Notes under the pieces: model-generated | Database searches by the model: none | What the model saw: the letters and a program-made list of their open reading frames with translations, nothing else | Told to the model about the DNA's origin: nothing | Source: Ktedonobacteraceae bacterium | Lineage (GTDB): Bacteria > Chloroflexota > Ktedonobacteria > Ktedonobacterales > Ktedonobacteraceae | Assembly: GCA_035533955.1 (NCBI GenBank) | Contig: DATLSW010000273.1 | Location: 1 to 48,905, forward strand | DNA: 48,905 bases | Direction: 5' to 3' | Translations under genes and position numbers: made by a program | Shown: piece after piece, positions 1 through 23,232 of the stretch | Layout: each line of letters opens with the position of its first letter | Numbering within the stretch: position 1 is the stretch's first letter

Positions 1-1004
1 AAAATTGTTATTTGTGCAAAGGTACCATCAGGATTAAGAATACCTATGTTGTAGGATTGCTGTTTGCCATTGCCATTCCAGCAGACCATATAGGTATATA
101 CACCATTCTGGAGAGAGCCGCTGACCCCCATAACCTGCCCATCTATAACCAGATGCGCGCCCAACTCAAGATCACTACCGGTAATGATGATTGTCGTCTG
201 CCCACCAGAGTGAGAAGGCGATATAAATTGCACATTCTGGAGATGTGGCACGCTGCCACCCAGATCAGCAAGTGTAACGGTCGTCGCCAGCCGTTCTACC
301 AGAGCCAGTCGAGGTAAAAGTCCGCGCAAGACCTGACGCGCCTGTATTTCAAACGTAGCGAGTCTACTCTTCAGTTGATCGCGTTGCGCCCCAGCCGGAA
401 CCTGGTTGATTGACTGAACCGCGTTTTTAATTTGCTGATCCAGTTTCTCTAACTGCTGCTCATATGCCTGCGCATCGGATAGATTAGCAAGGTCGGTCAG
501 CGTGTTGAGCCGATCATTCGCAAATTGCAGGTCGAGCGTTGCACGACCTACAGGCGAACCGCTCAGCGAGATTCGCACATTTTGTTCCCATTGATTCAGC
601 GCATAAAGGGGATTGTTGGGATTAGTAACCTGAGACGAGACCATTAGTATGCCGCATGTGAGCAACACCAGCAGCAAACAGCCGGTCAGGGCTACAGCAA
701 AAACAGGACGGGTTCGCATGAGCCGATGTGGAGAGAGCCTGTTCCACCAGGAACGCTGGGACGGCTGGAGGCGCTGCATAGCATTGTGTACGAGCATCTT
801 TTGCTCTAACTTTTCAGCAAAATCCGAGTCAACCTGTACAGCAGATGCCAGTTGAATATGGCGCGCCAGGGCAACCAGCTCGTTCACCTCCTGATCGCTA
901 GCAGGCAATAGAGATGGCAACAGGTCAGGGGATGTGTGAGCAGACCAGATCGAGTTGTCCTGTCTTTCAAGCTCTTCATTAAGATGTTCATAAAGAGGAT
1001 TCAT
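1..1004 (-). CDS. putative anti-sigma factor / single-pass membrane protein (partial, 3' end runs off the window)
   Basis: Absent from the ORF track because there is no stop in the window. Hand translation of the minus strand from ATG 1004..1002 gives MNPLYEHLNEELERQDNSIWSAH...RTRPVFAVALTGCLLLVLLTCGILMVSSQ (one TM), then a Q/L-rich helical region. The frame stays open to position 1. Its ATG overlaps the sigma-factor stop (ATGA at 1001..1004), the classic sigma/anti-sigma coupling. Confidence 0.55.
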   Translation of the reverse strand, partial: MNPLYEHLNEELERQDNSIWSAHTSPDLLPSLLPASDQEVNELVALARHIQLASAVQVDSDFAEKLEQKMLVHNAMQRLQPSQRSWWNRLSPHRLMRTRPVFAVALTGCLLLVLLTCGILMVSSQVTNPNNPLYALNQWEQNVRISLSGSPVGRATLDLQFANDRLNTLTDLANLSDAQAYEQQLEKLDQQIKNAVQSINQVPAGAQRDQLKSRLATFEIQARQVLRGLLPRLALVERLATTVTLADLGGSVPHLQNVQFISPSHSGGQTTIIITGSDLELGAHLVIDGQVMGVSGSLQNGVYTYMVCWNGNGKQQSYNIGILNPDGTFAQITI

Positions 1005-1690
1005 CGTACCCCCCCTGGATTCTGCATTTGCATGGGAGCTGTCCGGTCAGGCGGTGTTTTCTTTGCCAACAACCGTTGTAGACTATGCAGTGCGCGAAAC
1101 TGCAAAGCCTTCACAGCATTATCATTTTTGCCAAGCATACGTGCGACAGTGGCTACGTCATATCCCAGCAGTAACCGACCAACCAGTACCTGGCGTTGCT
1201 CTTCCGTAAGCATATTTATCGCTTTGACCGTAGTGTTCCATTCATCGCGTGCCTCTGCCCAACGAACCGGGTCGCTATCAGGATGGCTCGCGGGGATTGT
1301 CAAGCTTTCGGCGCCTCCCTCTTTGTCTCCCGAAGTTGCTTCGAGCGGAACATGAACCGGCAGCTTCTCGCGTTTGCGATAATAACCTGCCACGCTGATA
1401 CGCGCAATCTGTAGAATCCAGGCAGCAAAACCTGCCTCATCGCTCGTTCGAAGCTGGCTGATTCCTTCGACCATCTTCAAAAATACCTCCGAAGTGAGAT
1501 CTTCCGCTGTCGCACGATCAGGAACGCGGGTAGCAATGTAGCCAAATACGCCGGGCAAGAACTCACGGTAGAGCGTACTCAGCGCCTCAGATTCACTGCG
1601 CCGCGCAGAATCAAGCAGGAGCGTGAAAATAGATGAGCGATTCCCCGTGTCGGGGATATGGCTCCCGGACGTTCGACGCCAGGAAAACAT
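1001..1690 (-). CDS. ECF-type sigma-70 family RNA polymerase sigma factor
   Basis: Sigma region 2 (FGYIATRVPDRATAEDLTSEVFLKMVEGI...FAAWILQIARISVAGYYRKR) and region 4 HTH (LTEEQRQVLVGRLLLGYDVATVARMLGKNDNAVKALQFRALHSLQRLL). Start trimmed to ATG 1690, 6 nt after GGGAGAGGA. ATG 1696 or the track start 1756 are alternatives. Confidence 0.85.
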   Translation of the reverse strand: MFSWRRTSGSHIPDTGNRSSIFTLLLDSARRSESEALSTLYREFLPGVFGYIATRVPDRATAEDLTSEVFLKMVEGISQLRTSDEAGFAAWILQIARISVAGYYRKREKLPVHVPLEATSGDKEGGAESLTIPASHPDSDPVRWAEARDEWNTTVKAINMLTEEQRQVLVGRLLLGYDVATVARMLGKNDNAVKALQFRALHSLQRLLAKKTPPDRTAPMQMQNPGGVR

Positions 1691-1933
1691 GAACATTCCT
1701 CTCCCAAGAAAATAGTAAAAGGCCCGAGGTAACCAGAGGATTACAAGGTCATACAATCCGAGTCGATGTTGGTGTGCAACACCTTCTGCACATTACATTT
1801 CCTTTTTCGGTGATCGATGGCCTCTGTTGCACACTTCCCCTGGTAAGAGAGTTGCAATTAGCAGCATTTTAGTTACGGGTAAAGGAAAATGCAATCAAAC
1901 TGGCCCATCTGGGTATTTGCACCCGCGCTTTCT

Positions 1934-2090
1934 CAGGCCGTAACCAATAACGGGTGAAATACAACTACCTTACAATCAGCTCTATCATCCTGTGTGAAAG
2001 CTGGCACAATTCCATTTTTATCTGGCAGCGATTGCAATCGACCAGCCAGATACATGTAAAGGGAGCCGCATGTCTGTATCTGTCACTACC
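1934..2090 (+). repeat. copy A of a duplicated ~157-nt leader (paralogous to 6006..6162)
   Basis: Same length as copy B. Identical blocks: CAGGCCGTAACCAAT at the 5' edge, and CAGATACATGTAAAGGG..CATGTCTGTATCTGTCA at the 3' edge. The middle is diverged, roughly two-thirds identical by eye with small indels. Confidence 0.8.
2047..2082 (+). promoter_or_regulatory. 8-bp perfect inverted repeat CAGATACA-N20-TGTATCTG bracketing a Shine-Dalgarno (AAAGGGAG) and an ATG
   Basis: Read directly. The arms are identical to those at 6118..6154, while the enclosed spacer differs (AGCCG vs GAACTA). Confidence 0.6.
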
Positions 2091-2171
2091 AGTATGCTGT
2101 TGTCTGTTCTTCCTGATCGGCATTTGATGGTCAATGCTGCGTCTTTCTTTTTTCAAGGAGAAGTTCGATGA
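2070..2171 (+). CDS. possible 33-codon upstream ORF (MSVSVTTSMLLSVLPDRHLMVNAASFFFQGEVR)
   Basis: Starts with the same SD+ATG and first five codons (MSVSV) as the 872-aa gene at 6142. Its TGA (2169..2171) overlaps the ATG (2168..2170) of the next gene. It may be only a by-product of the leader duplication. Confidence 0.2.
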   Translation: MSVSVTTSMLLSVLPDRHLMVNAASFFFQGEVR

Positions 2172-3298
2172 GTCTCACCATTTGCCTTGCCGCGAGTACC
2201 ATTGAATACCCTGAAGGAGGTGGTCATCTATGGGTCTATCTCAACTGGGCTCTTGGTCTACAGGCGCTTGGATGCCGGGTTATCTGGCTCGAGGGGATTG
2301 ACCCCGCAATGCCTGTGCAACAAGTGCGGACCCTGACTTCGATGCTGAAGTCCCGTCTGGAGTCTTATGGATTAGCAGACGATGTGGCCCTTTGTTCCTG
2401 GGACGGCGCGCCACTGCCACAGGCTATGACGGAGAAGTGCCTGGATGTCGATGCCGCAGTCGAGGCGAATTTGCTGCTGAATCTGGCTTATAGTATCCCT
2501 TCCCAGGTCGTGGAACGTTTCCAGCGTACGGCTCTGGTGGACATCGATCCGGGCCTGCTACAGCTATGGATGAGCGCGGGGCTGGTGAACCCTGCCCAAC
2601 ACGACGTATACTTCACTATTGGGGAAACGGTGGGAAAACCAGCCGCACGATTTCCCGATTGTGGCTTGCAGTGGCATTACACGCCGCCAGCGGTTTTTTT
2701 GCCCGCGTGGCCGATGACTCGGACAAGTTCGAGGGCGCCGTTCACCACCGTTTCAGGCTGGTGGGAAGATTGGATAGAATATCAGGGAGAAAATGTCAAC
2801 AATGATAAGCGAACTTCGTTTCTCGAGTACGCAGACCTTCCATTGCATACATCAGCGCAACTGGAATTAGCGCTGTGTTTGTCAAACGAGGACGATGAGG
2901 ATCGGCGATTTCTGGAGCAGCGAGGCTGGAAGATTCGCGATTCATGGGAGGTGGCCCCGAATCCCAAACAATACCAGTCCTACATTCAACGATCTCGTGG
3001 CGAATTTAGTTGCGCGAAACCATCCTGTATGCTGCTGCAAAATGCCTGGATCAGCGACCGAACTCTGTGCTACCTGGCTAGTGGTAAACCGGCAGTGGTC
3101 CAGCATACAGGTTCCAGCAACTTCCTACCGGACGCGGAAGGGCTGTTTCGTTTCCACAACATAGAAGAAGCGGCTCGCGCGCTTACTATGGTGCAGTCAG
3201 ACTACGAGCAACAATGTATACTCGCGCGCCATCTGGCGGAAGATTATTTTGACGCACAGAAGGTCGTTGGATCGGTACTGGAGCGAGCATTAGCCTGA
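2168..3298 (+). CDS. GT-B-fold glycosyltransferase-like protein (CgeB / Glyco_trans_1_2-like C-terminus), paralog A
   Basis: AAGGAG lies 8 nt upstream of the ATG. Colinear with the 8825..9991 product: FTTVSGW, LELAL, SRGEFSCAK, CYLASGKPAV, EGLFRF, DYEQQ, AEDYFDA. Family assignment is from memory of CgeB-like C-terminal domains, not from a search. Confidence 0.6.
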   Translation: MSLTICLAASTIEYPEGGGHLWVYLNWALGLQALGCRVIWLEGIDPAMPVQQVRTLTSMLKSRLESYGLADDVALCSWDGAPLPQAMTEKCLDVDAAVEANLLLNLAYSIPSQVVERFQRTALVDIDPGLLQLWMSAGLVNPAQHDVYFTIGETVGKPAARFPDCGLQWHYTPPAVFLPAWPMTRTSSRAPFTTVSGWWEDWIEYQGENVNNDKRTSFLEYADLPLHTSAQLELALCLSNEDDEDRRFLEQRGWKIRDSWEVAPNPKQYQSYIQRSRGEFSCAKPSCMLLQNAWISDRTLCYLASGKPAVVQHTGSSNFLPDAEGLFRFHNIEEAARALTMVQSDYEQQCILARHLAEDYFDAQKVVGSVLERALA

Positions 3299-3312
3299 AA
3301 GCGAGGTTGAAG

Positions 3313-4056
3313 ATGAACAGTTTTTTCGTAAGCTCCGGATCAGGAGATCGAATCGTCGCTATTTTGTCCTATCACAAAATAGGGAAGCCATCCGTCCCTG
3401 ATTGGGACACCTGGTTCCATATACCTGAAGCCATCTTTGCGCAACATCTGAGCTACCTGCGTGAAAATAGCTGGCATGTGATCAGCCTCGAAGACTTTCT
3501 CAGGTCTCTGACGGAACCGGATAGTTTGCCCCAGCAGTCAGTATTACTGACCTTCGATGATGGCTACCAGTCGCTGCGCCGCGTTGCACTTCCCTGGCTG
3601 ATCAAATTTGGATATCCGGCAGTCGTCTTCGTGCCATCCGATTTCATAGGAGGGCGCAACTGGTTCGATGCTGACAATGAGCCTGAAGATGTAATGTGTG
3701 ATTGGGACGATTTGCGGGAATTGGAGCGCTGCGGCGTTTCCGTGCAATCCCACGGGGTCTCGCACCGGGCATTTTCTGAGCTTGACCTGGCGCAGCAAAG
3801 GGAAGAATTGATGCGATCTAAAGCAGTCCTTGAGGAAGGGCTGAATAAACCCGTCAACGTCTTTGCGTATCCCTATGGAGATATGGGAACGAACCCTGAC
3901 GTACAGCGCAGCTTGCTGAAGCAGGCTGGTTATATTTCTGCTTGTCTGTACGGGGGAAGACCAATCCGTTTACCCATTACCAACCCCTATTGCCTGAGCC
4001 GTGTAGCAATGGGTCCTGATACTGATCTATACGCGGAACTGGAGCAAGGAACCTGA
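3313..4056 (+). CDS. polysaccharide deacetylase (NodB homology / CE4 family)
   Basis: Motifs LLTFDDGY, VQSHGVSHR, AYPYGD. ATG 3313 preferred because GCGAGG lies 6 nt upstream; the track start is TTG 3307. Confidence 0.85.
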   Translation: MNSFFVSSGSGDRIVAILSYHKIGKPSVPDWDTWFHIPEAIFAQHLSYLRENSWHVISLEDFLRSLTEPDSLPQQSVLLTFDDGYQSLRRVALPWLIKFGYPAVVFVPSDFIGGRNWFDADNEPEDVMCDWDDLRELERCGVSVQSHGVSHRAFSELDLAQQREELMRSKAVLEEGLNKPVNVFAYPYGDMGTNPDVQRSLLKQAGYISACLYGGRPIRLPITNPYCLSRVAMGPDTDLYAELEQGT

Positions 4057-5909
4057 TGAACGAGAGTCCTGAAACTTTAGTGGAGGAGAAAACTCCAGGC
4101 ACACTGCGCCTGATGCGGCGTTTGTTGCGCAGGTGCGCGCCTGGTCAGATACCGATGATTGCCCTGGGGCTGGCCGTGTCATTAGTAAGCGCGGGCGCTG
4201 CGCTGCTCCAGCCATGGCCTTTGAAGCTGGTTGTTGATAATGTCGTAGGCAATCATCCGCTTCCTGCTCCACTGGCCGACCTGGCTGGCGTCATCACTAC
4301 CCATACCGCTCTCACCTCATCCCCAAAGGTAGCGCTGCTGATTATTCTTTGCCTGGGAGTGCTGGTGATCCAATCGCTTGTAAGTATACTCGAGGTTTTC
4401 AGTACCTACCTGCTTGTTTCTATTGGCCTACGCATGGTATTCAAATTACGCTGCTCACTGTTCGATCACATTCAACAGTTATCGCTGTCGTTTCACGATG
4501 CGACTGCCGTGGGGGATTCGCTCTATAGAGTCACCTGGGATACCTACTGTGTACAGGAACTATTCAATAGTGGTATTATCCCGGCTCTCACTGCCACTTT
4601 CACTCTCGTGGGTATCGCTATCGTGATGCTTTCTTTAGATTGGAAGGTGACGCTTGCCGCTCTGATGATCGGTGTGCCACTCGTGTTGTTCATTCGACGC
4701 ATGGACAGGCCGATGACAGAATTCTCGCTGCGGGTACACGAGCGTGAGAGTGACATCAGCTCACGCGTGCAAGAAACGTTGACGGGTATCCGGGCGGTTC
4801 AGGCTTATGGGCGTGAGGAGTTTGAAGGTGTTCGCTTCCGCCAGCATGCCAATGCCAGTATGCGTGCGAATCTCCGGCTCACGGTCCTTGAAAGCGGTTC
4901 CCAGGCAGTGATTGATCTGCTGCTCGCGGCTGGCACGGCGGCAGTAATCGGAGTCACGGCTGTCGAAGCTCTGAGAGGACAACTGACTGTGGGCGACGTG
5001 GTACTCCTGGTTGCCTACGTGGCGATGCTCTATCAACCGCTGCAAACGCTGGCCTCCACTGCCGTTGTGGTGCAGAGCGCCGCGGCGGGCGCGCAGCGTG
5101 TCTTTGCAGTTTTGGATGCCCCTCCCGATGTAGCTGATACAGAGCATGCCATCGAGCTCCAAGGCAGATCAAGCGGCCATATCGCTTTCGAGCATGTCTC
5201 ATTTGGCTACAGAGAAGAGCTTCTTACCCTGCAAGACGTGTGTATTGATATTCCTGCTGGCGGGACGGTGGCGCTCGTTGGCCCTTCGGGCGCCGGGAAG
5301 ACGACGCTGGCAAGCTTGCTTATTCGCTTCTATGATCCCAGGGCCGGTCGCATCACCCTTGATGGAGTTGATCTGCGCAGCCTCACCTTGCAGTCCTTGC
5401 GCCGAAACATCGCGCTTGTGCTTCAAGAGCCGGTTTTGTTCTCTGCCAGCATCCGCGAAAATATCGCCTATGCTCGGCCAGGAGTGCCGCTTGAGGAGAT
5501 TAAGGCAGCAGCTCGCGCGGCGGGCGCTCATGAGTTTATCATGGCATTACCTGAAGGCTACGAGACCGAGATCGGCGAACGTGGTGTCACCCTCTCAGGA
5601 GGCCAACGGCAGCGTCTCTCGATTGCCCGCGCATTCTTGAAGGACGCGCCAATCCTGATTCTGGATGAGCCGACGAGTGCGCTGGATGCGGAGACGGAAG
5701 CGCAGTTGCTGGAAGCCCTTGAACACTTAAAAATGGGCCGAACCACGCTCATTATAGCCCATCGCTTATCGACGATTCGCAGCGCCGACCAGATCGTCGT
5801 ACTACAGGATGGGATGGTTGTGGAGGCTGGAACACATGCAGAGCTGATGCACGCAGAAGGTCTTTTCCAGCGACTCTATGATAGCCAGTTTGGAATCGTT
5901 TCTCATTAG
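4056..5909 (+). CDS. ABC exporter, fused permease/ATPase (MsbA-like type I exporter)
   Basis: N-terminal six-helix TMD. Walker A GPSGAGKTT, signature LSGGQRQR, Walker B ILILDEPTS, H-loop IIAHRL. The ATG overlaps the preceding TGA by 1 nt. Confidence 0.9.
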   Translation: MNESPETLVEEKTPGTLRLMRRLLRRCAPGQIPMIALGLAVSLVSAGAALLQPWPLKLVVDNVVGNHPLPAPLADLAGVITTHTALTSSPKVALLIILCLGVLVIQSLVSILEVFSTYLLVSIGLRMVFKLRCSLFDHIQQLSLSFHDATAVGDSLYRVTWDTYCVQELFNSGIIPALTATFTLVGIAIVMLSLDWKVTLAALMIGVPLVLFIRRMDRPMTEFSLRVHERESDISSRVQETLTGIRAVQAYGREEFEGVRFRQHANASMRANLRLTVLESGSQAVIDLLLAAGTAAVIGVTAVEALRGQLTVGDVVLLVAYVAMLYQPLQTLASTAVVVQSAAAGAQRVFAVLDAPPDVADTEHAIELQGRSSGHIAFEHVSFGYREELLTLQDVCIDIPAGGTVALVGPSGAGKTTLASLLIRFYDPRAGRITLDGVDLRSLTLQSLRRNIALVLQEPVLFSASIRENIAYARPGVPLEEIKAAARAAGAHEFIMALPEGYETEIGERGVTLSGGQRQRLSIARAFLKDAPILILDEPTSALDAETEAQLLEALEHLKMGRTTLIIAHRLSTIRSADQIVVLQDGMVVEAGTHAELMHAEGLFQRLYDSQFGIVSH

Positions 5910-6005
5910 CATTCCCTGTAACCTCTCTCACCTCTCAAGAACGTGAGTGATTTTCAGACATTTCTGTATGGAGAGTAGTCGCACGTTTCTTATCGATTCC
6001 TCTCC

Positions 6006-6162
6006 CAGGCCGTAACCAATCGCTGATAAATTACAACATTCCTTTCAATAACAACATGTTCTGGTGAGAAAGCCGGAACACTATTTTTTTACCTGACAGC
6101 GCCTGCAGTCGCTTCATCAGATACATGTAAAGGGGAACTACATGTCTGTATCTGTCAATACC
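6006..6162 (+). repeat. copy B of the duplicated ~157-nt leader (paralogous to 1934..2090)
   Basis: See copy A. This copy ends in the real start of the 872-aa gene. Confidence 0.8.
6118..6154 (+). promoter_or_regulatory. inverted repeat CAGATACA-N21-TGTATCTG bracketing the SD (AAAGGGG) and start codon 6142
   Basis: Read directly. The arms are identical to 2047..2082. Confidence 0.6.
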
Positions 6163-8760
6163 GGTGTCCGCCCCTCTGTACAAGGCAAATTTCTCTTTTC
6201 TGGTGAGAAAAAGCTGTATATTCGCGGCGTCACCTATGGGACATTTCGTCTCGATCAAGATGGCAATGAGTGCTACGACCCGGACGTAGTCGAGCAGGAT
6301 TTTGCTATGATGGCAGCAAATGGCCTGAATGCAATCCGCACCTATACCATGCCTCCGCGCTGGTTGCTGGATATGGCGCAGCGGCACGGTCTCTATGCCA
6401 TGGTAGGGCTGCCGTGGGAGCAACATATCACATTTCTCGACGACAAGAAACGCGCCGCGTCGATAGAGGAACGAGTGCGCAAAGGGGTGAGAGATTGCGC
6501 CGGTCATCCAGCGGTGCTTTGTTATGCCATTGGCAACGAAATTCCCTCTTCGATTGTGCGCTGGTACGGGCATCGCCGTATCGAATGTTACCTCGAACGG
6601 CTCTATCGCGCCGCAAAAGCCGAGGACCCCACGGGACTCGTTACCTATGTGAACTTCCCATCTACCGAATATCTCGAGTTGCCTTTCCTCGATTTCCTCG
6701 CTTTCAATGTCTACCTCGAGTCGCCGCAGAATCTCGAGTCCTATCTTGCACGCCTGCAAAACATTGCTGGTAATCGGCCTCTGGTGATGGCCGAGATGGG
6801 GTTAGACAGCCGCAGGAACGGCGCGGCAAAACAGGCCGAGACGTTAGACTGGCAGATACGCGCGACATTTGCTGGCGGATGCGCCGGTTCGTTTGTCTTT
6901 GCCTGGACAGATGAGTGGTACCGGGGAGGCTATGAAATCGAAGATTGGGATTTTGGCATTACGAGCCGGGACCGGCAGCCCAGGCTGGCGCTGGAAATTG
7001 TGCGCAAGGCATACAGTGAAGTGCCATTTCCAGCAGATTTACCCTATCCACGCGTCTCCGTCATTGTTTGCAGCTACAACGGTCAACGCACGCTGCGCGA
7101 TTGTTGCGATGGTCTGCTGAAGCAGGAATATCCAAACTACGAGGTCATCCTCGTCAACGATGGTTCTAGCGACATGACCCCGGCTATTGGTCAGGAATAT
7201 GGCATCAAGGTCATTACCACTGAAAACCATGGTTTGAGCAAAGCGCGCAACATTGGTTTGGAAGCTGCCACAGGCGAAATTGTAGCCTATATCGACGATG
7301 ACGCTCGCCCTGACCCTCACTGGCTGACTTATCTGGCAACCACTTTTATGAAGAGCGAGTACGCGGGAGTGGGTGGCCCCAATATTGCACCACCTGGTGA
7401 TGGGCCAATCGCTGATTGTGTTGCCAATGCTCCCGGTGGTCCTATTCATGTCCTTCTCTCTGACCAGGAGGCAGAACATATTCCAGGCTGCAATATGGCG
7501 TTTCGTAAATCGTGCCTTCAGGCTATCGGTGGCTTTGATCCCCAGTTCCGTATTGCCGGCGATGATGTCGATGTGTGCTGGCGCTTGCAACAGCGAGGTT
7601 GGAAATTGGGTTTCAGCCCTGCTGCCATGGTCTGGCATCACCGCCGCAATTCGGTAAGGACGTACTGGAAGCAGCAAAAGAACTACGGCAAGGCGGAGGC
7701 TTTGTTAGAAAAGAAATGGCCTGAGAAGTACAACGCGATCGGTCACTTGACATGGGCCGGAAGACTCTATGGTCCCGGCGTTACCCGATCACTCAATTTA
7801 TGGACGAGCCGCATCTACCAGGGTACATGGGGAAGTGCGCTCTTTCAATCCGTCTACCAACCAGCGCCAAACACATTCTGGTCTCTGGCGCTGATGCCTG
7901 AGTGGTACCTGCTTCTTCTGCTTCTCACGGGTTTGTCCCTGATCGGTATTTTCTGGCCTCCGCTCTTCTTCACACTGGCATTACTCATACTGGCATGCGG
8001 TATACCTGTTGTCCAGGCATGTCTAAGCGCCAGAGAAACAGTGCGCAGGGTAGCAACGAGTGACGCCCCTATGAGGATACGACAGCAAGCCGCCAGGCTA
8101 ACGTTGTACAGCCTGACGGCATTGCTGCACCTGCTCCAGCCATTGGCACGCCTGAACGGACGTCTGCGCGGCGGATTATCGCCCTGGCGCTGGCGCGGCA
8201 TAGCTGGTTATGTACTGCCGAGGCCATCTGTATCCACCACCTGGAGCGAGCAGTGGCAAGATCCTCTTGAACATTTGCGTTCCATTGAAGCAACTACGTA
8301 TGCGATTGGCAGCTATGTTCGGCGCGGCGGCGATTACGACCGTTGGGATATGGAGGTTCGTGGTGGAATATTTGGAGCCGCCCGTATGCGTATGGCAGTT
8401 GAAGAACACGGCGCGGGCAAGCAACTGCTGCGTTTCAGTTTCTGGCCGAGATGTTCGTTTACCGTCCTGGCGCTGATCCTGGTATTTGCTCTTCTCTCAA
8501 CCGGAGCCGCATTCGCGCGAGCCTGGACCGCGTCGGCTATTCTCGGCAGCACGGCCCTGCTGCTAGCTATACGCATGTTCGAGGAATGTGCGAACGCCAT
8601 AACAACGCTTCGACGCGTGTTAAAACAGCCAGAGAAAATAGTTGAACAATCCAGGGGCGCGGCTCGCAATACTGTGGGAGGGAAGCCTGAGCCAGGGCGA
8701 ACTCGTGAGCCAGAGCGACTGCAAGGGTCACCCCTACCATATACGGGTTCTCTAGATTAA
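6142..8760 (+). CDS. three-part fusion: N-terminal clan GH-A TIM-barrel glycoside hydrolase-like domain + GT2 glycosyltransferase + C-terminal multi-TM region (putative processive polysaccharide synthase)
   Basis: GH part: YIRGVTYG, acid/base-like AIGNEIP, nucleophile-like VMAEMG. GT2 part: VSVIVCSYNG, LVNDGSSD, AYIDDDA, GDDVDVCWR, RTYWKQQKNYG (Q-x-x-RW-like). At least four hydrophobic helices follow residue ~575. There is no N-terminal signal or TM. Confidence 0.8.
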   Translation: MSVSVNTGVRPSVQGKFLFSGEKKLYIRGVTYGTFRLDQDGNECYDPDVVEQDFAMMAANGLNAIRTYTMPPRWLLDMAQRHGLYAMVGLPWEQHITFLDDKKRAASIEERVRKGVRDCAGHPAVLCYAIGNEIPSSIVRWYGHRRIECYLERLYRAAKAEDPTGLVTYVNFPSTEYLELPFLDFLAFNVYLESPQNLESYLARLQNIAGNRPLVMAEMGLDSRRNGAAKQAETLDWQIRATFAGGCAGSFVFAWTDEWYRGGYEIEDWDFGITSRDRQPRLALEIVRKAYSEVPFPADLPYPRVSVIVCSYNGQRTLRDCCDGLLKQEYPNYEVILVNDGSSDMTPAIGQEYGIKVITTENHGLSKARNIGLEAATGEIVAYIDDDARPDPHWLTYLATTFMKSEYAGVGGPNIAPPGDGPIADCVANAPGGPIHVLLSDQEAEHIPGCNMAFRKSCLQAIGGFDPQFRIAGDDVDVCWRLQQRGWKLGFSPAAMVWHHRRNSVRTYWKQQKNYGKAEALLEKKWPEKYNAIGHLTWAGRLYGPGVTRSLNLWTSRIYQGTWGSALFQSVYQPAPNTFWSLALMPEWYLLLLLLTGLSLIGIFWPPLFFTLALLILACGIPVVQACLSARETVRRVATSDAPMRIRQQAARLTLYSLTALLHLLQPLARLNGRLRGGLSPWRWRGIAGYVLPRPSVSTTWSEQWQDPLEHLRSIEATTYAIGSYVRRGGDYDRWDMEVRGGIFGAARMRMAVEEHGAGKQLLRFSFWPRCSFTVLALILVFALLSTGAAFARAWTASAILGSTALLLAIRMFEECANAITTLRRVLKQPEKIVEQSRGAARNTVGGKPEPGRTREPERLQGSPLPYTGSLD

Positions 8761-8774
8761 TGAACTGTAGGGCA

Positions 8775-8797
8775 GGGGCGACTCTTGTGGTCGCCTT
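8775..8797. repeat. REP-like hairpin GGCGAC-N7-GTCGCC just after the synthase stop
   Basis: Core GGGCGACTCTTGTGGTCGCC closely matches GGGCGACCCTTGCGGTCGCC at 11139..11165. Confidence 0.6.
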
Positions 8798-8824
8798 ATT
8801 GAAAAATGATTGGAGTTGATGCGT

Positions 8825-9991
8825 ATGAAACCGCTGCGTATTATTGTCGTTGGCACGCTTGCATCCAACCCATATGCAGGAATGGCCTGGATGCATATGC
8901 AGATCGCGGCCGGCTTGCAACGGCTGGGACATGACGTTTACTACTTCGAAACCACCTCCGCCTGGCCCTATGACCCCATACGCCAGGAGATAGTCGGGGA
9001 TTCGGACTACGCGCTGCCATATCTGGCGCGGCTCGCGGAAAGCTTTGGGCTGGGAGGTCGCTGGGCTTACCGGCGCAGTTACTCGGATAAAGAGTGGTTT
9101 GGTTTGAGCCGCGGCAAGGCTGAGGATTTACTTGCGCACGCCGATGCCGTATTGAATGTGGCAGGAGCAACCAAGCTTGGTGAGGAAGGATTGAAAGTAG
9201 GACGCCTGATATATTATGGCACCGATCCTGTATTCGACGAGATTGCCTTTGCCAATGGAGATGAAAATACGCGCAGATTCATTGCGGAGCATGATGACAT
9301 CATCACTTATGGCGAGAACATTGGTAGACCAGATTGCCCAATACCATCCTTGCCTGGTCTTTGCGCCAGAACGCGCCAGCCAGTCTTACTCGATCTCTGG
9401 CAGCGTAATCCTCCTTTAAGGAAAACGTTCACCACTGTGAGCAATTGGAAGCAGGACGGACATGATATCGATTTCCAGGGTGAAACCTACTATTGGAGCA
9501 AGCATTATGAGTTTATGAAGATTCTGGGCCTGCCGCGGCTGGTAGATCAACCTCTCGAGCTGGCTATGGGATTGGCCTACCTTCAGCCTGACACGCTGAA
9601 CATGCTTGAGTCGAACGGCTGGCGCTTAGCCGACGCGCAGACATTTTCTATGGACCCCTGGCTCTACCGCGATTATGTGCAGGCTTCACGCGGTGAATTT
9701 ACGGTTGCCAAAGATCAGAACGTGCGCCTGCGCAGTGGCTGGTTTAGCGAGCGCAGCGCCTGCTACCTGGCGGCCGGGCGACCGGTAATCACCCAGGACA
9801 CAGGCTTTGGAACGGTCTTGCCTACCGGGGAGGGATTGTTCGCATTTAACACTATGGAAGATATCCTGGTCGCTTTCGAAGCCATCAACGCGGACTACGA
9901 AAGGCATAGCAAGGCGGCCAGAGCCATTGCAGAGCAATACTTCAGGGCGGAGACGGTCCTGGCGAAACTTCTAGGCGATTTAGGATTTTGA
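8825..9991 (+). CDS. GT-B-fold glycosyltransferase-like protein (CgeB / Glyco_trans_1_2-like), paralog B
   Basis: Colinear with the 2168..3298 product: FTTVSNW, LELAM, SRGEFTVAK, CYLAAGRPV, EGLFAF, DYERH, AEQYFRA. ATG 8825 lies 9 nt after GGAG; ATG 8819 and TTG 8810 are alternatives. Confidence 0.6.
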   Translation: MKPLRIIVVGTLASNPYAGMAWMHMQIAAGLQRLGHDVYYFETTSAWPYDPIRQEIVGDSDYALPYLARLAESFGLGGRWAYRRSYSDKEWFGLSRGKAEDLLAHADAVLNVAGATKLGEEGLKVGRLIYYGTDPVFDEIAFANGDENTRRFIAEHDDIITYGENIGRPDCPIPSLPGLCARTRQPVLLDLWQRNPPLRKTFTTVSNWKQDGHDIDFQGETYYWSKHYEFMKILGLPRLVDQPLELAMGLAYLQPDTLNMLESNGWRLADAQTFSMDPWLYRDYVQASRGEFTVAKDQNVRLRSGWFSERSACYLAAGRPVITQDTGFGTVLPTGEGLFAFNTMEDILVAFEAINADYERHSKAARAIAEQYFRAETVLAKLLGDLGF

Positions 9992-10080
9992 TCTACTGAT
10001 CTTATTCCGACTGGAAACGCCGCTTGATCGCGGCCAGAGCTTCGCGCTTATCCGGTTGGATAAGGAGGATGGATGGGAAA

Positions 10081-10800
10081 ATGAAGCGATATTTGATCGT
10101 TAATGCCGACGATTTCGGTCTGAGTTTTGGCGTGAACCGGGGTATCATCGAGGCATTTGAGCATGGAATTGTGACGAGTACCAGCTTGATGGTCAACTGG
10201 ATTGGAGCAGCGGAGGCGGCTGCTTACGCTCGCAGGCATCCTAAATTGAGTATCGGGCTGCACCTGGACCTTGGTGAGTGGGCGTATCGAAATGGAGAAT
10301 GGGTAATCTTATACGAGGAGGTTCCCCTGGATGATGCTCAATCCATAGAAAACGAGGTAGCGCGCCAGCTTGCCTCGTTCCGCTTCTTTCTTGGCAAAGA
10401 TCCTGCCCATATCGACTCCCACCAGCATGTTCATCGCGAGGAACCGGTACAAGCCATAGTAGCCAGGGTTGCGCGGGAGCTATCAATCCCATTGCGACAT
10501 TTCAATCCAACAGTCGGCTATTGCGGGAATTTCTACGGACAGACGGCTGAGGGCGAGCCATTTACCGAAGCCATCAGTGTAGAGGGGCTGATCAAAACGC
10601 TAGAAGCATTGCCTTCCGGCATTACGGAACTCTGCTGTCATCCCGGCTACAGCGAAGAACTGGATACGATGTATAGAGCGGAACGCGCAAGAGAAGTGCA
10701 GACGCTGTGCGACCTCAGAGTGTGGGCCATCCTCGACGGGTTGGAGATAGCATTGTGTTCATTCGATGATATTGGCGAAATCGTGTCATCGGGTATCTGA
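10081..10800 (+). CDS. YdjC/ChbG/HpnK-family carbohydrate deacetylase
   Basis: MKRYLIVNADDFGLS...TSTSLMVN...HLDLGEW...HIDSHQHVH are YdjC-family hallmarks. Start moved from the track's 10024 to ATG 10081, just before the conserved NADDFG block. Confidence 0.85.
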   Translation: MKRYLIVNADDFGLSFGVNRGIIEAFEHGIVTSTSLMVNWIGAAEAAAYARRHPKLSIGLHLDLGEWAYRNGEWVILYEEVPLDDAQSIENEVARQLASFRFFLGKDPAHIDSHQHVHREEPVQAIVARVARELSIPLRHFNPTVGYCGNFYGQTAEGEPFTEAISVEGLIKTLEALPSGITELCCHPGYSEELDTMYRAERAREVQTLCDLRVWAILDGLEIALCSFDDIGEIVSSGI

Positions 10801-10833
10801 TCCGGCGAGTCCTGGACACAGCCGAAACCCCGC

Positions 10834-11103
10834 TCATGATCCGATGTCGTCCATCAGTATCTTGCTTCCTGCTTCTCGTACTCCTGGTTCCCGACTCATC
10901 GCAGGACGAGATGCGCCAAAGCGTGGCTCCTGCTCCCATGCCGGATGCACCACGCGCCGTGACGGGAGTGTTTCGTCCATCAGCAGCGCGACCAGCACTC
11001 CACTCATGATCATGAGGGCGGCGGCGAACCAGAAGCCCGCCAGCAGTCCAAAGGCATCCGCGACGATCCGTTCATACACCCAGGCACAGGGGGTATCCAT
11101 CAA
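10834..11103 (-). pseudogene. possible 3' remnant of a transporter gene (one TM helix plus tail)
   Basis: ERIVADAFGLLAGFWFAAALMIMSGVLVALLMDETLP reads like the last helix of an MFS-type transporter. No upstream coding sequence is present, because the REP-like hairpin abuts it. Could also be a genuine small membrane protein or noise. Confidence 0.2.
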
Positions 11104-11138
11104 CTTTTTGCAAACTTACGCCGGTTGATGTATGGAGG

Positions 11139-11165
11139 CCAGGGCGACCCTTGCGGTCGCCCTGG
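11139..11165. repeat. REP-like perfect hairpin CCAGGGCGACC-CTTGC-GGTCGCCCTGG
   Basis: 11-bp perfect stem with a 5-nt loop and no flanking T-run. Same core as 8775..8797. Confidence 0.7.
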
Positions 11166-11233
11166 CACTTTGCAAACTGTTGCCCAGGCTCATGAGCGAA
11201 ATCCATTATCAGGCGTTGAACGCTCTTATGCCA

Positions 11234-11683
11234 TCACCTGGAAGAACTGAGAGAGGCAATCACTCGTTCCAGGCGAGTTCGCGCCTCGCCTGCCAGTTGT
11301 TGTAATGCGGGATTGTGAACGATGCCGAGCATTGCAACGGGATCGGCAATTTCTACACGCGTCCTTTTCCCCTTATCTCCAGCGTCGTCATGCGCTTCAT
11401 AAACGACGACGTTACAGGGCAGCAGCAATCCGACATCGTGATCAAGCTCAAGGGCTCGATGCGCAAGTTGGGGATTGCAGGCTCCAAGAATGGAGTAACG
11501 CTCGTAATCTATGTTGAGTTTGGCTTTCATCGTTGCCTGAACATCGATCGTAGTGAGTACTCCAAACCCTTCAACTTTTAGCGCCTCTGTCACACGCTCG
11601 ACTGCCTCATCAAACGGCAGGTTGACCGTAGTGCCAAATCCATAGTCGGGACCTTTCGTTGTAGGCGGTTGTGTATTTGTCAT
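11234..11683 (-). CDS. DUF302 domain protein
   Basis: GFGTTVNLPFDEAVERVTEALKVEGFGVLTTIDVQATMKAKL...YSILGACNP...LLPCNVVVYE is the DUF302 pattern. Start set at MTNTQPP, after AGGAAG. Confidence 0.75.
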   Translation of the reverse strand: MTNTQPPTTKGPDYGFGTTVNLPFDEAVERVTEALKVEGFGVLTTIDVQATMKAKLNIDYERYSILGACNPQLAHRALELDHDVGLLLPCNVVVYEAHDDAGDKGKRTRVEIADPVAMLGIVHNPALQQLAGEARTRLERVIASLSSSR

Positions 11684-11855
11684 TGTCGTTTCTTCCTTTC
11701 CGATTGGAAATGTCATCTGCACATTTGCGGGGTGTGTCCTCATGCAAAAAGTGCGATAACAATACTATAGATTACGCGCATCAATTATCTTTGCGCTTAA
11801 TAGGCGATAGATGAAGTTGAGTACCTTGTGAACGCACGGTTCATCGTCGCAACCC

Positions 11856-12065
11856 TCAAGTACTGCCGCCTGTACTACTATCGCAGCTACTGCTGCTCAA
11901 ATTGCCGGTAACACCACTATTCATTCGCTGTGCAACCTGCGAGATACGACGCTGCACATATGTATGACCGCACTGCGGGCAGGGTACCGCGTCAGCCTGG
12001 CTGAAGCTCACAATTTTTTCAAATGCCGCTCCACATTGGGAGCAGCGATACTCATACATCGGCAT
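11856..12065 (-). CDS. FmdB-family zinc-ribbon protein (CxxC_CxxC_SSSS type)
   Basis: MPMYEYRCSQCG...VPCPQCG plus the Ser-rich tail SSSSCDSSTGGST. Confidence 0.8.
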   Translation of the reverse strand: MPMYEYRCSQCGAAFEKIVSFSQADAVPCPQCGHTYVQRRISQVAQRMNSGVTGNLSSSSCDSSTGGST

Positions 12066-12124
12066 ATATATCCTATACCTCCCGTATTGTTTCTCCGCTA
12101 CAGATTATTTTTTCGCGCTGATGG

Positions 12125-12589
12125 TTACTTGCTGGCATTGAAACCTAGCGTACGCGCCTGTGAAGCAAACTGCTCTTGTATGCCTACACATACCACATCA
12201 CATAACGTCAATGCTGTACGATCAGCGATCGCATAGTAGATACTGGTTCCCACTTTACGACGACTCACCAGTCCTCCCTGCATCAAGGCGGCCAGGTGTT
12301 TGGAAACATTGGGCTGCCCGGCTCCTGTAAGCGAGACGAGTTCTCCCACGTTACGCTCTCCGGCTGTAAGCGCAGCCAGTAACTTGAGGCGCAGCGGTTC
12401 GCTAAGCAACCGGAAACGAGCCGCAATCAGGTCGAGCAGCGGTTCGGAAAATCCATGCTCGCTATCGACCAGAGTCCATAAAGCAGACGGAATTATACTT
12501 TCTTTCTCAGCGATCTCTTCTCCATCTCTGCATAAAACCGTTTCTTGTTGATCCATACACATCATCCTTCTCAATTGTTCAGCCAGCAA
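12125..12589 (-). CDS. ArsR/SmtB-family transcriptional regulator (copy 1)
   Basis: LLSEPLRLKLLAALTAGERNVGELVSLTGAGQPNVSKHLAALMQGGLVSRRKVGTSIYYAI is the winged HTH. Cys residues lie in the N-terminal extension and in a C-terminal CDVVC. The true start may be an internal Met. Confidence 0.85.
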   Translation of the reverse strand: MLAEQLRRMMCMDQQETVLCRDGEEIAEKESIIPSALWTLVDSEHGFSEPLLDLIAARFRLLSEPLRLKLLAALTAGERNVGELVSLTGAGQPNVSKHLAALMQGGLVSRRKVGTSIYYAIADRTALTLCDVVCVGIQEQFASQARTLGFNASK

Positions 12590-13771: not shown

Positions 13772-13984
13772 TTATCCATTTGATGAGCTATCCTGGGCGG
13801 AAGACTCCTTCGCGGCCCAGATCTGTTTCAGACGCTGTACAATGACGGCGCGCATCTGGCGATTAATGAAGCCCTGTTCTTCCCAACGATTGAGCAGGTT
13901 GGCGATCTCTTCGCGGCTGCGCGATGGATCGCCTGCCAGCATCTGCGCGAAATTTTCAATAACTGCCTCTAACTCCATACTCAT
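13772..13984 (-). CDS. 70-aa helical protein of unknown function, last gene of the shdr operon strand
   Basis: MSMELEAVIENFAQMLAGDPSRSREEIANLLNRWEEQGFINRQMRAVIVQRLKQIWAAK... Start set at ATG 13984, after AAGGTGAG. The track's longer ORF (to 14161) overlaps the upstream gene. Confidence 0.4.
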   Translation of the reverse strand: MSMELEAVIENFAQMLAGDPSRSREEIANLLNRWEEQGFINRQMRAVIVQRLKQIWAAKESSAQDSSSNG

Positions 13985-14090
13985 CTTGCTCACCTTACCA
14001 TGATATAACCGACGACCGGTAAAATTGGCACAAGAAGGCATAGCAGCAGGCTCAGGCAGATAGACTCGTCGAGCATACCTCGTCTCCGGC

Positions 14091-14663
14091 TCAGATGAAC
14101 AGGGAAACGTCGGCATCCTTCGCGTAGTCGATGAAGTGGGTCGCTCCGCACACCTGCTCAACGCCGTCGATAAAATCCTCTGACTTATAGCCGAAAACGT
14201 CCATCGTCATACCGCAAGGCATCAGTTTGACACCGGCTTCAACCGCCATTTCCAGCAGTTCTTCAATCGTCGCGACGTTATGGGCCTTAAACATCTTCTT
14301 CATGATCGTCGTTCCCATCGCCGTCATGCCAGGTATCGCGCCGACGATGTTGGGTACAGGCATGGGCATAGCTGGATTCCCCAGAGGCGCAACGCTCAGA
14401 TGTTTCTTCTTGTGAATGATGTTCAGGCCGTAGAATGTGAAGAAAATGCCTACGTCCCAGCCCAGAGCCGCCGCTGTCGTCGCCAGAATCAATGGAGGAT
14501 AGGCCCAGTCAAGCGTCCCCTTGGTGGCGATGATCGCGAGCCGTGGCGTGCGTGTCTCCTTCTCTGCCTCTTTCTCCTGTAAGTAAGCGTCCACTCGTTC
14601 GCGGATGAGACGCTCTATCTCAGGAGACAATCTTTCCTGCTGTGTTTCCGTCTGCATATCCAT
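14091..14663 (-). CDS. DsrE/DsrF/DrsH-like family protein (YrkE / PF13686-type)
   Basis: LAIIATKGTLDWAYPPLILATTAAALGWDVGIFFTFYGL...VKLMPCGMTMDVFG...ADVSLFI matches my memory of Bacillus YrkE-type proteins with the conserved Cys. The N-terminal ~45 aa form a charged helix. AAGGAG RBS. Confidence 0.7.
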   Translation of the reverse strand: MDMQTETQQERLSPEIERLIRERVDAYLQEKEAEKETRTPRLAIIATKGTLDWAYPPLILATTAAALGWDVGIFFTFYGLNIIHKKKHLSVAPLGNPAMPMPVPNIVGAIPGMTAMGTTIMKKMFKAHNVATIEELLEMAVEAGVKLMPCGMTMDVFGYKSEDFIDGVEQVCGATHFIDYAKDADVSLFI

Positions 14664-14753
14664 TGGGCAACTCCTTCCGCAAGCTCACCGCTTGCTGCTT
14701 TAGATAACGATGTTACTCCATATTCTACGTGCTAAAAGCACGCTGAACGCCCA

Positions 14754-15836: not shown

Positions 15837-15893
15837 ATCGCACCTTCCTCAATTTCCTGGACGAGCGCGGGAAGCGTCCCTGCTCTCTGCCCA

Positions 15894-16352
15894 TCAATCC
15901 ATGCAGCGATAGCATTGCAATTTGCGCGCCTCGATTTTCTCGCGATATTCTGCAACAGCCTGCACTTGCGGCAGCAGAAGCGGCCATTCCTCGTCAAAGC
16001 GAGTCGGCTTTAATCGTATCATCCAGCCGTTGCCATACGGGTCTTTATTCGCCAACAAGATGTTCTGCTTGAAGCCAGCTTCGTTCGTCGCGACGATCTC
16101 GCCTGTGAGCGGCGTCGGAAATGGGCCAACCCACTTGGCGCTTTCTATCGTCGCCGCACTCTGACCGCGCTGCAATGTCCGTCCTATCGCTTTGAAGCGG
16201 ATATGTACGAATTTCCCGCACTGCGCCTGCGCCGGATCGGTCATGCCCATTGTTACGCAGCCGTCTTCGTCGCGCCGCAGCCACACATCGTGTTCCACAT
16301 CAAAATAGCAATCTTCTGGAAACTCGCACCCGCGATAGATCACCGAGGTCAC
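15894..16352 (-). CDS. lbpA: GcvH-like lipoate-binding protein LbpA (copy 2)
   Basis: GMTDPAQAQCGKFVHI...GQSAATIESAKWVGPFPTPLTGEIV...DPYGNGWMIRLKP, with the lipoyl-Lys in ESAKW. Start set at GTG 16352, 9 nt after GGGAGGG. This avoids the 70-nt overlap implied by the track ORF. Confidence 0.8.
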   Translation of the reverse strand: MTSVIYRGCEFPEDCYFDVEHDVWLRRDEDGCVTMGMTDPAQAQCGKFVHIRFKAIGRTLQRGQSAATIESAKWVGPFPTPLTGEIVATNEAGFKQNILLANKDPYGNGWMIRLKPTRFDEEWPLLLPQVQAVAEYREKIEARKLQCYRCMD

Positions 16353-16374
16353 GTATTGTTTCCCTCCCGCGTTG

Positions 16375-16812: not shown

Positions 16813-16850
16813 ACTGTTGTTCCGTCCCTCTCATTGTATGTTATCAGGCT

Positions 16851-17123: not shown

Positions 17124-17132
17124 CGCAACCTC

Positions 17133-19316: not shown

Positions 19317-19346
19317 TGGGACCTCTCTCTGGGTTATATGGTCTCT

Positions 19347-20330: not shown

Positions 20331-20333
20331 TGA

Positions 20334-21119: not shown

Positions 21120-21183
21120 ATCCTTGTATGCTCTCCTCTTTTATTACAACAGGTATATCCGCTCCACGCGGGCGCGATGCGGA

Positions 21184-22449: not shown

Positions 22450-22452
22450 AGG

Positions 22453-23217: not shown

Positions 23218-23232
23218 GGCGATACCTCTTTG

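Follow-up and report, generated by a model that had tools for sequence, protein, structure and literature searches.

Here we describe a gene cassette for the synthesis and export of a glycan, one copy of which lies at the left end of a 48,905-nucleotide stretch of DNA from a soil member of the Ktedonobacteraceae (Chloroflexota; assembly GCA_035533955.1, contig DATLSW010000273.1, positions 1 to 48,905), hereafter referred to as the window. The six plus-strand open reading frames (ORFs) of this copy are named A to F in their order along the DNA (Table 1). The core of the cassette consists of D, which joins a glycosidase-type barrel to a GT2 glycosyltransferase and a membrane anchor, of C, an ATP-binding cassette (ABC) half-transporter, and of E, a glycosyltransferase with a predicted GT-B fold, and it usually also includes F, a YdjC-family deacetylase. 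The system is real and coherent, and in kind it would be one of cytoplasmic synthesis with ABC-dependent export. New here are the observations that E is much more conserved than its neighbours and that some E relatives are fused to C-type ABC exporters; that each GT-B gene is directly followed by a deacetylase gene (E by F, A by B); and that a 28-nt motif of the extracytoplasmic function (ECF) type precedes the sigma factor gene, A and D, with the same pattern in two related genomes. Our overall reading, in which we place about as much trust as doubt, is that the sigma factor, its anti-sigma factor and A to F form an eight-gene unit that holds one copy of a widespread, horizontally spread cassette, and that the product of this cassette is a hetero-oligosaccharide or short glycan, assembled on the cytoplasmic side of the membrane and exported by a type-IV ABC transporter.

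Results

The D-C-E core is conserved across at least 12 phyla

We fetched 79 loci through E, from at least 12 phyla, and scored them by tblastn with the window proteins at a query coverage of at least 70%; as contig ends cut many of the loci, all counts are lower bounds. E was matched in 78 of the 79 loci, C in 62, D in 49, F in 47 and B in 2. All of C, D, E and F were matched in 28 loci, their order being D-C-E-F with few exceptions; the Ktedonobacteraceae order A-B-C-D-E-F differs from it. The carriers belong to Binatia, Acidobacteriota, Bacteroidota, Verrucomicrobiota, Planctomycetota, Gemmatimonadota, Actinomycetota, Pseudomonadota, Cyanobacteriota and Chlorobiota, among others. The preliminary description of this DNA, made from the letters alone, had grouped these genes as a glycan cluster, and its synteny holds across at least 12 phyla. 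This supports clustering beyond chance and one coherent, conserved glycan system.

The E family is large but patchily distributed. At least 7,949 relatives are present in a 90%-identity collection, with 670 representative clusters at E <= 1e-30, and among 301 sampled Chloroflexota genomes the family was found in 16 (the genome of the window included), two of them among the 21 from the same family as the window. A quick tree brings the E orthologs together in a single tight clade of 37 rows, with members of different phyla mixed among one another, and this mixing, together with the patchy distribution in Chloroflexota, points to horizontal spread. E had no tblastn match among 72,556 plasmid records. 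Across 27 four-gene loci the median identity to the window proteins was 63% for E, 53% for F, 45% for D and 43% for C, and E copies in other phyla are 63–76% identical. Since the neighbouring genes are much more diverged, recent transfer alone is insufficient to account for the conservation of E.

Beside the core, other loci carry E-family paralogs, NodS-like methyltransferases (PF05401) and APH-type kinases (10 loci each), PMT_2 GT-C enzymes and pyruvyl transferases (seven loci each) and an epimerase (five loci); such varied additions are the signature of a modular glycan-decoration cassette. In a group of cyanobacterial loci (L060–L079; Nostoc, Scytonema, Tolypothrix and Brasilonema) there are two tandem ABC exporters and three E-family paralogs, D is split into parts of ~687 and ~188 aa, and most loci are without YdjC; a hexapeptide acetyltransferase, further GT2 genes and a DevBCA-like HlyD/MacB exporter are also found there.

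E has a predicted GT-B fold and A is its paralog

With 32% identity over 373 aa (E = 6e-49), A and E are paralogs. Neither matched GT4/Glycos_transf_1 (PF00534 or a related Pfam model), and a profile of the E family recovered only weak matches among PDB sequences (E >= 0.02), for which reason we took the fold from structure prediction. The model of E, built on a 76-sequence alignment, has a mean predicted local distance difference test (pLDDT) score of 96.1. In a VIA search against representatives, its closest structural neighbours were PimA (Z 23.1 over 320 residues), BshA (Z 22.6) and DGD2 (Z 22.2), and Foldseek agreed on the GT-B fold, with tll1591 at E = 5e-12; MshA and a tetrahydrobiopterin glucosyltransferase were also among the fold neighbours. 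The predicted structure thus confirms E as a GT-B protein closest to the retaining GT4 enzymes, at a sequence identity to BshA and PimA of 10–14%.

A and E had been proposed earlier as two CgeB-like GT-B paralogs. Paralogy stands, and the GT-B assignment is borne out by the model of E, but the likeness to CgeB finds no support in A or E themselves, neither of which matches PF13524. Two distant relatives, both fusion proteins, do match this family in their E-type part (P0132, E = 1.7e-8; P0197, E = 2.1e-6), and 10% of one Atlas neighbour cluster carries it.

In the quick tree A falls into a five-row 'A-type' clade. A and B behave as an accessory pair of a GT-B and a carbohydrate esterase family 4 (CE4) gene added to the core, given that A is absent and B split in genome G225, and that a Frigoriglobus contig (L032) has the order A-B-E-F. 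The two genes are adjacent in the window, in a locus of a related Ktedonobacteraceae metagenome-assembled genome (L001) and in L032. In the locus of the third Ktedonobacteraceae genome, L080 (G225:C38), the region 3293–4248 lacks A and has the CE4 gene in two frames (3527–4150 and 4129–4248), which could mean either that the accessory pair is decaying or that the assembly is in error here.

Fusion proteins tie E to the exporter

C consists of ABC_membrane and ABC_tran domains by Pfam. Its best NCBIfam match is MsbA (TIGR02203; 480 bits, cut-off 602), followed at a distance from their own cut-offs by the glucan-exporter models NF010178 (399 bits, cut-off 733) and TIGR01192 chvA (315 bits, cut-off 585); the HepA and PglK models are also matched, again below their cut-offs. 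Export through a half-transporter-type ABC protein, as had been suggested, is consistent with the gene content, and MsbA-type glycan exporters have precedents. We did not find LpxC (PF03331) in the 79%-complete assembly, using a search that detected it in control genomes, which makes lipid A flipping by C unlikely.

From 150 listed E relatives we chose 20 long ones (>= 800 aa) and scanned them for fusions. In seven of the 20 an ABC exporter lies on the N-terminal side of the E domain, with a GT2 domain also present in three of them, and another 10 join E to GT2, in some cases together with GT4, sulfotransferase or methyltransferase domains. Single ABC::GT-B polypeptides include P0141, P0146, P0147, P0156, P0170 and P0223, with GT2 also present in P0141 and P0156. 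The ABC part of one such fusion is 40% identical to C (E = 9e-110), the same level as that of the syntenic orthologs of C. By the Rosetta-stone logic, these proteins tie E functionally, and probably physically, to the exporter.

D joins a clan GH-A barrel to a GT2 domain, both predicted to be cytoplasmic

Pfam assigns residues 15–292 of D to a GH2_C-type TIM barrel (E = 2.7e-17) and residues 303–512 to GT2 (PF00535; 110 bits, cut-off 23.3), with transmembrane (TM) segments thereafter. The structure model (mean pLDDT 84) has a barrel of glycoside hydrolase clan GH-A at ~10–295, a GT2 domain at ~300–530 and about four TM helices around a small alpha/beta domain (696–771). Foldseek matched the barrel to GH2 beta-glucuronidases, GH157, GH158 and GH5_18, with E of ~1e-13 for GH2, GH157 and GH158. 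In an alignment of 25 sequences the invariant residues are E133, E218, D340, D385, D387, D474, D475, Q511, Q512, Y515 and G516. E133 corresponds to the acid/base Glu of the NE motif and E218 to the nucleophile Glu, both invariant in 25/25 sequences, and N132 is nearly so; the N-terminal domain therefore has the features of a retaining glycosidase of clan GH-A.

The DxD (D385 and D387) and GDDVD motifs of the GT2 domain are likewise invariant, while the QxxRW motif of processive synthases is replaced by QQxxYG. Among NCBIfam models the best match of D is MftF (158 bits, E = 3e-46, cut-off 280); the score on the PgaC/IcaA model TIGR03937 is 104.2 bits (E = 7e-30, cut-off 422.3), that on NodC is 25 bits (cut-off 550), and those on the polyprenyl-phosphate GT2 models are 19.5 bits for ArnC and 20.8 bits for dolichyl-phosphate hexose transferase. 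Hydropathy analysis placed no hydrophobic segment before residue ~586, so that both catalytic domains precede the first TM helix and should face the cytoplasm. Beta-linkages are what inverting GT2 enzymes form and what clan GH-A enzymes cleave or transglycosylate; from these established family properties, the two domains of D appear stereochemically matched.

Two unrelated deacetylase families follow the GT-B genes

The presence of two unrelated deacetylase families, already recognised in the preliminary description, is upheld by Pfam, with the motifs intact in both proteins. B matches CE4 (PF01522) with 76.2 bits (cut-off 23.1) and has the metal-binding motifs TFDDG and HGVSH (HxxxH); its best NCBIfam matches are PgaB (86.5 bits, cut-off 321.9) and IcaB (42.4 bits, cut-off 248). 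F matches YdjC (PF04794) with 159.3 bits (cut-off 29.7), has the motifs NADDFG and HxDSHQHVH, and reaches 102 bits on the HpnK model (cut-off 232.6). In 37 of the 47 loci with both genes, F starts between -60 and +150 nt from the end of E, and this direct succession argues against F being part of a chitobiose operon. By hydropathy, A, B, E and F have neither TM segments nor signal peptides. With the catalytic domains of D also preceding its first TM helix, deacetylation is expected to be cytoplasmic and to take place before export.

A 28-nt motif links the sigma factor gene to both halves of the cluster

The sigma factor has regions 2 and 4 only and adjoins a membrane-bound anti-sigma factor, as is characteristic of the ECF group. 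It scores 63.7 bits on TIGR02937 (cut-off 42.9) and 113 bits on the BldN-family model TIGR02952, below the cut-off of 206. The anti-sigma factor has one TM segment (residues 104–122) and an extracytoplasmic DUF5667 domain (PF18915, E = 1.9e-9). The sigma factor was found in two of the 79 loci. An anti-sigma gene stands next to the cluster in L001 and L080 as well. The cluster had been placed directly downstream of the sigma/anti-sigma pair; the pair does adjoin the cluster, but it lies on the minus strand and is divergent from the glycan genes.

Aligning the intergenic region between the sigma factor gene and A with that of L001 revealed two conserved blocks, one on each strand. The pattern CGTAAC-N17-CAAC derived from them occurs three times in the window, against 0.07 expected, at 1851–1877 (minus strand), 1939–1965 (plus) and 6011–6037 (plus), and all three sites are found at equivalent places in L001. 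In its 28-nt form, CCGTAACYAA-N12-TRCAAC, the motif has these three sites only in the 3.84-Mb assembly, with none for the reversed control. The same holds in two related genomes, where 3/3 (G147, 4.8 Mb) and 2/2 (G225, 6.6 Mb) of the genome-wide 28-nt matches lie at this locus. The position before the sigma factor gene is kept in L001, G147 and G225, and that in the C-D gap in L001, G225 and L080, with the A-side motif loose in L080. The loose pattern CGTAAC-N17-CAAC is not enriched genome-wide (7 sites versus 13 in the reversed control), and the evidence for the motif therefore consists of its local clustering and its 28-nt form. A generic scan for sigma-70 promoters and terminators performed at chance level (9 promoters versus 7.9 expected, 11 terminators versus 9.3), and our literature search found no published promoter consensus for BldN-type sigma factors.

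Since the same motif precedes the sigma factor gene and both transcription units, the sigma/anti-sigma pair would control the whole pathway. Motif copy 1 is presumably an autoregulatory promoter, and we infer autoregulation of the ECF sigma factor, which would in turn drive the two operons leader-A-B-C and D-E-F. In a soil metatranscriptome (X13), near-identical contigs cover the sigma factor gene (1301–1666), the leader with A (1989–3180), B, B/C, D (twice) and E/F, the leader + A contig beginning at 1989, which is 24 nt past the end of the motif. As these contigs show neither transcript starts nor strand, and DNA carry-over is possible, they are a weak hint of expression.

The segment 1925–2100 duplicates 5997–6172 (~165 nt), including the promoter motif, the leader, the ribosome-binding site and the first codons of D. 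The 33-codon leader ORF upstream of A is explained by this duplication of the 5' end of D. L001 is without most of the duplicate upstream of A. Between motif and start codon, a leader of ~105 nt is kept in sequence in both copies in the window (6038–6144 and 1966–2072), in L001 (7328–7434) and in L080 (6232–6338); among its features are a GAAAGC block and a CATGT/ACATG pairing on either side of the Shine-Dalgarno sequence, and a hairpin with a T-run is seen at 6057–6090. We do not propose the leader as a structured RNA element: the consensus fold of the four copies is weak (-4.45 kcal/mol, one compensatory pair) and there is no Rfam match. An Rfam scan of the window from 1 to 12500 at E <= 0.1 likewise gave no match.

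Layout and edges of the locus

The coordinates of all features are collected in Table 1. Seven same-strand genes had been counted originally; we find six plus-strand ORFs, and the seventh frame is only the leader ORF. The individual identities fared better, as Pfam bears out the CE4 deacetylase (B), the ABC exporter (C), the glycosidase::GT2::TM fusion (D) and the YdjC deacetylase (F). Spacing is tight between A and B (8 nt), B and C (1-nt overlap), D and E (49 nt) and E and F (32 nt), the exception being the 232 nt between C and D. The true start of E is likely the ATG at 8825, and the Atlas record of E begins at residue 6; that of F probably lies near ORF residue 17–20.

Table 1. Features of the glycan locus in the window.
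Feature	Position	Strand	Size	Description
Anti-sigma factor	3–1004	-		ORF runs off the start of the window, incomplete; PF18915
ECF-type sigma factor	1001–1756	-		Sigma70_r2 + r4_2; divergent from the glycan genes
Promoter-like motif, copy 1	1851..1878	-		Points at the sigma factor gene
Promoter-like motif, copy 2	1938..1965	+		Points at the leader ORF and A-B-C
Leader ORF	2070–2171	+	33 codons	Stop overlaps the ATG of A (ATGA)
A	2168–3298	+	376 aa	Paralog of E, presumably GT-B by sequence; small 'A-type' clade
B	3307–4056	+	249 aa	CE4 deacetylase, predicted cytoplasmic, paired with A
C	4056–5909	+	617 aa	Type-IV (MsbA-like) ABC half-transporter; presumed exporter
Promoter-like motif, copy 3	6010..6037	+		Between C and D, 105 nt ahead of the D start codon (ATG)
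D	6142–8760	+	872 aa	Clan GH-A TIM barrel + GT2 + TM anchor
E	8810–9991	+	393 aa	Core GT-B glycosyltransferase with a GT4-like predicted fold
F	10024–10800	+	258 aa	YdjC-family deacetylase

The window and L001 are syntenic from the anti-sigma gene as far as the end of F and no further. At ~10900–11165 of the window, matching contigs from several soil metagenomes break off or diverge (loose ends in X3, X4 and X7), and this region is a strain-variable junction at the right edge of the unit, in line with the end of the L001 synteny at F. An ORF of 120 aa at 10766–11128 has no Pfam match and no counterpart in L001, and we therefore treat it as lying outside the system. Further downstream, at 13772–27159, the window contains a type II sHdr-LbpA sulfur-oxidation operon that is unrelated to the glycan cluster.

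Discussion

Proposed mechanism

In the mechanism that we propose, membrane-anchored D would make a beta-linked chain with its inverting GT2 domain, and its retaining GH-A barrel would trim, transglycosylate or release that chain. Each GT-B enzyme would add an alpha-linked N-acetylhexosamine, which the deacetylase encoded directly downstream would convert to a free-amine hexosamine, with E acting together with F and A together with B. The finished, partly cationic product would be passed to exporter C, on which E is probably docked. The membrane-spanning anti-sigma factor would probably switch on the whole pathway in response to an envelope or external cue. As to the nature of the product, our confidence that it is a soluble or wall-bound glycan is evenly divided.

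Several points weigh against this scheme. A and E have no Pfam or NCBIfam match even at E <= 10, and the intermixing of phyla among the E orthologs comes from a quick tree only. The promoter motif was defined from the sites themselves, from two at first, with the third found afterwards. F scores 145 bits on the model of ChbG, below the cut-off of 227, and MsbA as the best model of C is equally compatible with a lipid-linked and a soluble product. Deacetylation is not universal to the cassette, since 24 loci with enough sequence on either side to hold F are without it and the CE4 gene, found in only two of the 79 loci, lies outside the conserved core. The sugar identities of the product, finally, are purely inferred.

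Alternative explanations

A possible though doubtful alternative is that the cassette builds a lipid-anchored glycoconjugate on polyprenyl phosphate, diacylglycerol or phosphatidylinositol, with the GT-B and GT2 enzymes acting on a membrane lipid; the deacetylases would expose an amine on the product, in the manner of NaxD and HpnK, and C would flip it to the outer leaflet, in the manner of MsbA or PglK. The MsbA model being the best match of C (480 bits), with PglK matched too, speaks for such a product, as do the lipid-acceptor enzymes PimA (Z 23.1) and DGD2 (Z 22.2) among the structural neighbours of E and the existence of YdjC enzymes with lipid-linked substrates, NaxD and HpnK, the latter with the 102-bit match of F. 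Seven loci also have PMT_2 (GT-C) genes, whose family draws on lipid-linked donors, and cyanobacterial loci have a DevBCA-like HlyD/MacB exporter in addition. However, the conserved core is without an initiating phosphoglycosyltransferase or lipid-synthesis gene, and the GT2 domain of D is nearest to MftF, EpsD and PgaC-type models and scores poorly on ArnC (19.5 bits) and dolichyl-phosphate hexose transferase (20.8 bits). F, for its part, scores higher on soluble-substrate ChbG (145 bits) than on HpnK (102 bits), and a cytoplasmic glycosidase domain would have no obvious role on a glycolipid. Glycosylation, prior to export, of a cofactor, natural product, signal or similar small molecule or peptide seems improbable to us. 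It would account for MftF being the best NCBIfam model of D (158 bits, E = 3e-46); in the part of the source available, MftF of the mycofactocin pathway is described as adding a cellulose-like chain to a small molecule (PMC7491314). Also in keeping with it are the neighbours of E that act on small acceptors (BshA, MshA, tetrahydrobiopterin glucosyltransferase and tll1591) and the NodS-like methyltransferases in 10 loci. Yet the MftF score remains under the cut-off of 280, and in the 79 loci no scaffold gene is conserved beside the core, be it for a ribosomally synthesised and post-translationally modified peptide (RiPP), a nonribosomal peptide synthetase (NRPS), a polyketide synthase (PKS) or a radical S-adenosylmethionine (SAM) enzyme.

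Chemistry resembling poly-N-acetylglucosamine (PNAG) or chitosan had been suggested in the preliminary description; here D would be a processive N-acetylglucosamine polymerase and the two deacetylases would partly de-N-acetylate the polymer as an exopolysaccharide. We consider this quite improbable. Two deacetylase families are indeed present, PgaB and IcaB are the best NCBIfam matches of B, and D matches PgaC_IcaA at E = 7e-30, but all of these scores fall far below the cut-offs (PgaC 104/422, PgaB 86.5/322 and IcaB 42/248 bits), and both deacetylases are without export signals, whereas PgaB and IcaB act outside the cytoplasm. Moreover, the TM helices of D number only about four and its motif is QQxxYG where QxxRW would be expected, at least one GT-B enzyme, needless for a homopolymer, is always in the core, and CE4 is absent from 77 of the 79 loci. 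It is very improbable that we are dealing with separate known pathways lying side by side, such as chitobiose catabolism and lipid A flipping. Although the nearest named model of each protein does come from a different pathway, every one of these models is matched below its cut-off, synteny extends across at least 12 phyla with YdjC following E in 37 of 47 loci, ABC::E-domain and E::GT2 fusions exist, the promoter motif is common to both halves of the cluster, and no LpxC was found in the 79%-complete assembly.

Significance

If our reading of a cytoplasmic glycan assembly route with ABC-dependent export is true, an unstudied way of making and exporting an amino-sugar glycan is common to soil bacteria of at least 12 phyla, and its enzymes include a GT-B protein without a curated family model and a cytoplasmic glycosidase fused to GT2. 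The ABC::GT-B fusions suggest that glycosylation and export are physically coupled, which would be of general interest for ABC-transporter-dependent glycan pathways. The Ktedonobacteraceae copy would be a directly testable regulon of one sigma factor and three promoters, in which signal and product may be reached via the sigma/anti-sigma pair. A bolder version, which we offer as speculation and think unlikely in its full extent, is that of a horizontally mobile and so far unrecognised class of exporter-coupled assembly line, in which a hyperconserved GT-B enzyme is docked on, or in certain lineages fused to, a type-IV ABC exporter beside a cytoplasmic make-and-cut GH-A::GT2 synthase. What it makes would be a defined oligosaccharide or glycolipid, cationic through its free-amine hexosamine and akin to Nod-factor or glycosylphosphatidylinositol (GPI)-core molecules, in soil bacteria of at least a dozen phyla, and in Ktedonobacteraceae a dedicated ECF regulon would use it to remodel envelope charge or to emit a signal in response to an external cue.

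Comparison with known systems

We found no paper describing this gene combination in our literature search, in agreement with the initial impression that it is not a described system, and the proteins do not reach the curated cut-offs for PgaC, PgaB, IcaB, MsbA, ChvA, NodC, MftF, ChbG, HpnK or BldN. The Pap cluster of Pseudomonas fluorescens was considered as a match and set aside: as far as described in the part of the article available (PMC7716237), it has a YdjC protein but is an unrelated Wzx-type system.

The closest precedent for the function of F is offered by NaxD/LgmC and HpnK, YdjC enzymes that remove the acetyl group from an N-acetylhexosamine just attached, in their case by a GT2 enzyme to a lipid; the accessible portion of the source describes NaxD as deacetylating undecaprenyl-phosphate-linked N-acetylgalactosamine (PMC11279074). 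The conserved neighbour of F is, in contrast, a GT-B and not a GT2 enzyme, and the host has no detectable lipid A pathway. D resembles the NdvB or 'Orphan' cyclic beta-1,3-glucan synthase of pseudomonads, in which one polypeptide combines an N-terminal TIM-barrel glycosidase/transglycosylase with GT2 and for which, according to the excerpt available, a mechanism of synthesis followed by cutting or cyclisation has been proposed (PMC10237404). However, the GH17 domain of NdvB is periplasmic and a TM region with a BcsA-like channel separates it from the GT2 domain, whereas the barrel of D matches GH2_C rather than GH17, is joined directly to GT2 and is predicted to be cytoplasmic. A further parallel is Cgs with ChvA/NdvA of Agrobacterium and Brucella, where a membrane-anchored, cytoplasmic-side protein combines glycosyltransferase and glycoside hydrolase-type domains (for the general architecture see the available part of PMC10901819) and export is through an MsbA-like half-transporter. 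Cgs differs in being composed of GT84 and GH94, where D has GT2 and a clan GH-A barrel; the cassette adds GT-B enzymes and deacetylases, and C scores below both exporter cut-offs.

In the MshA/MshB, BshA/BshB and PIG-A/PIG-L pathways, a GT4-fold enzyme is followed by a de-N-acetylase to yield a glucosamine-bearing acceptor. The pairs E-F and A-B resemble them in combining a GT4-fold enzyme with a deacetylase, here as adjacent genes, with the difference that the deacetylases belong to YdjC and CE4 and not to the LmbE family. In the Nod factor pathway (NodC, NodB, NodS and NodIJ), an oligosaccharide is built by a GT2 enzyme on the inner side of the membrane, one of its amines is exposed by a deacetylase of the cytoplasm, a NodS-type methyltransferase may act as well, and an ABC system exports the product. 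GT2, predicted cytoplasmic deacetylation and presumed ABC export are all shared by the cassette, and NodS-like genes are present in 10 related loci; there is, on the other hand, no NodA acyltransferase, the exporter is of type IV and not of the NodIJ type, and GT-B enzymes are added. Because deacetylation is predicted to precede export, the logic of the cassette would be closer to that of Nod factor or Cgs/ChvA than to that of PNAG.

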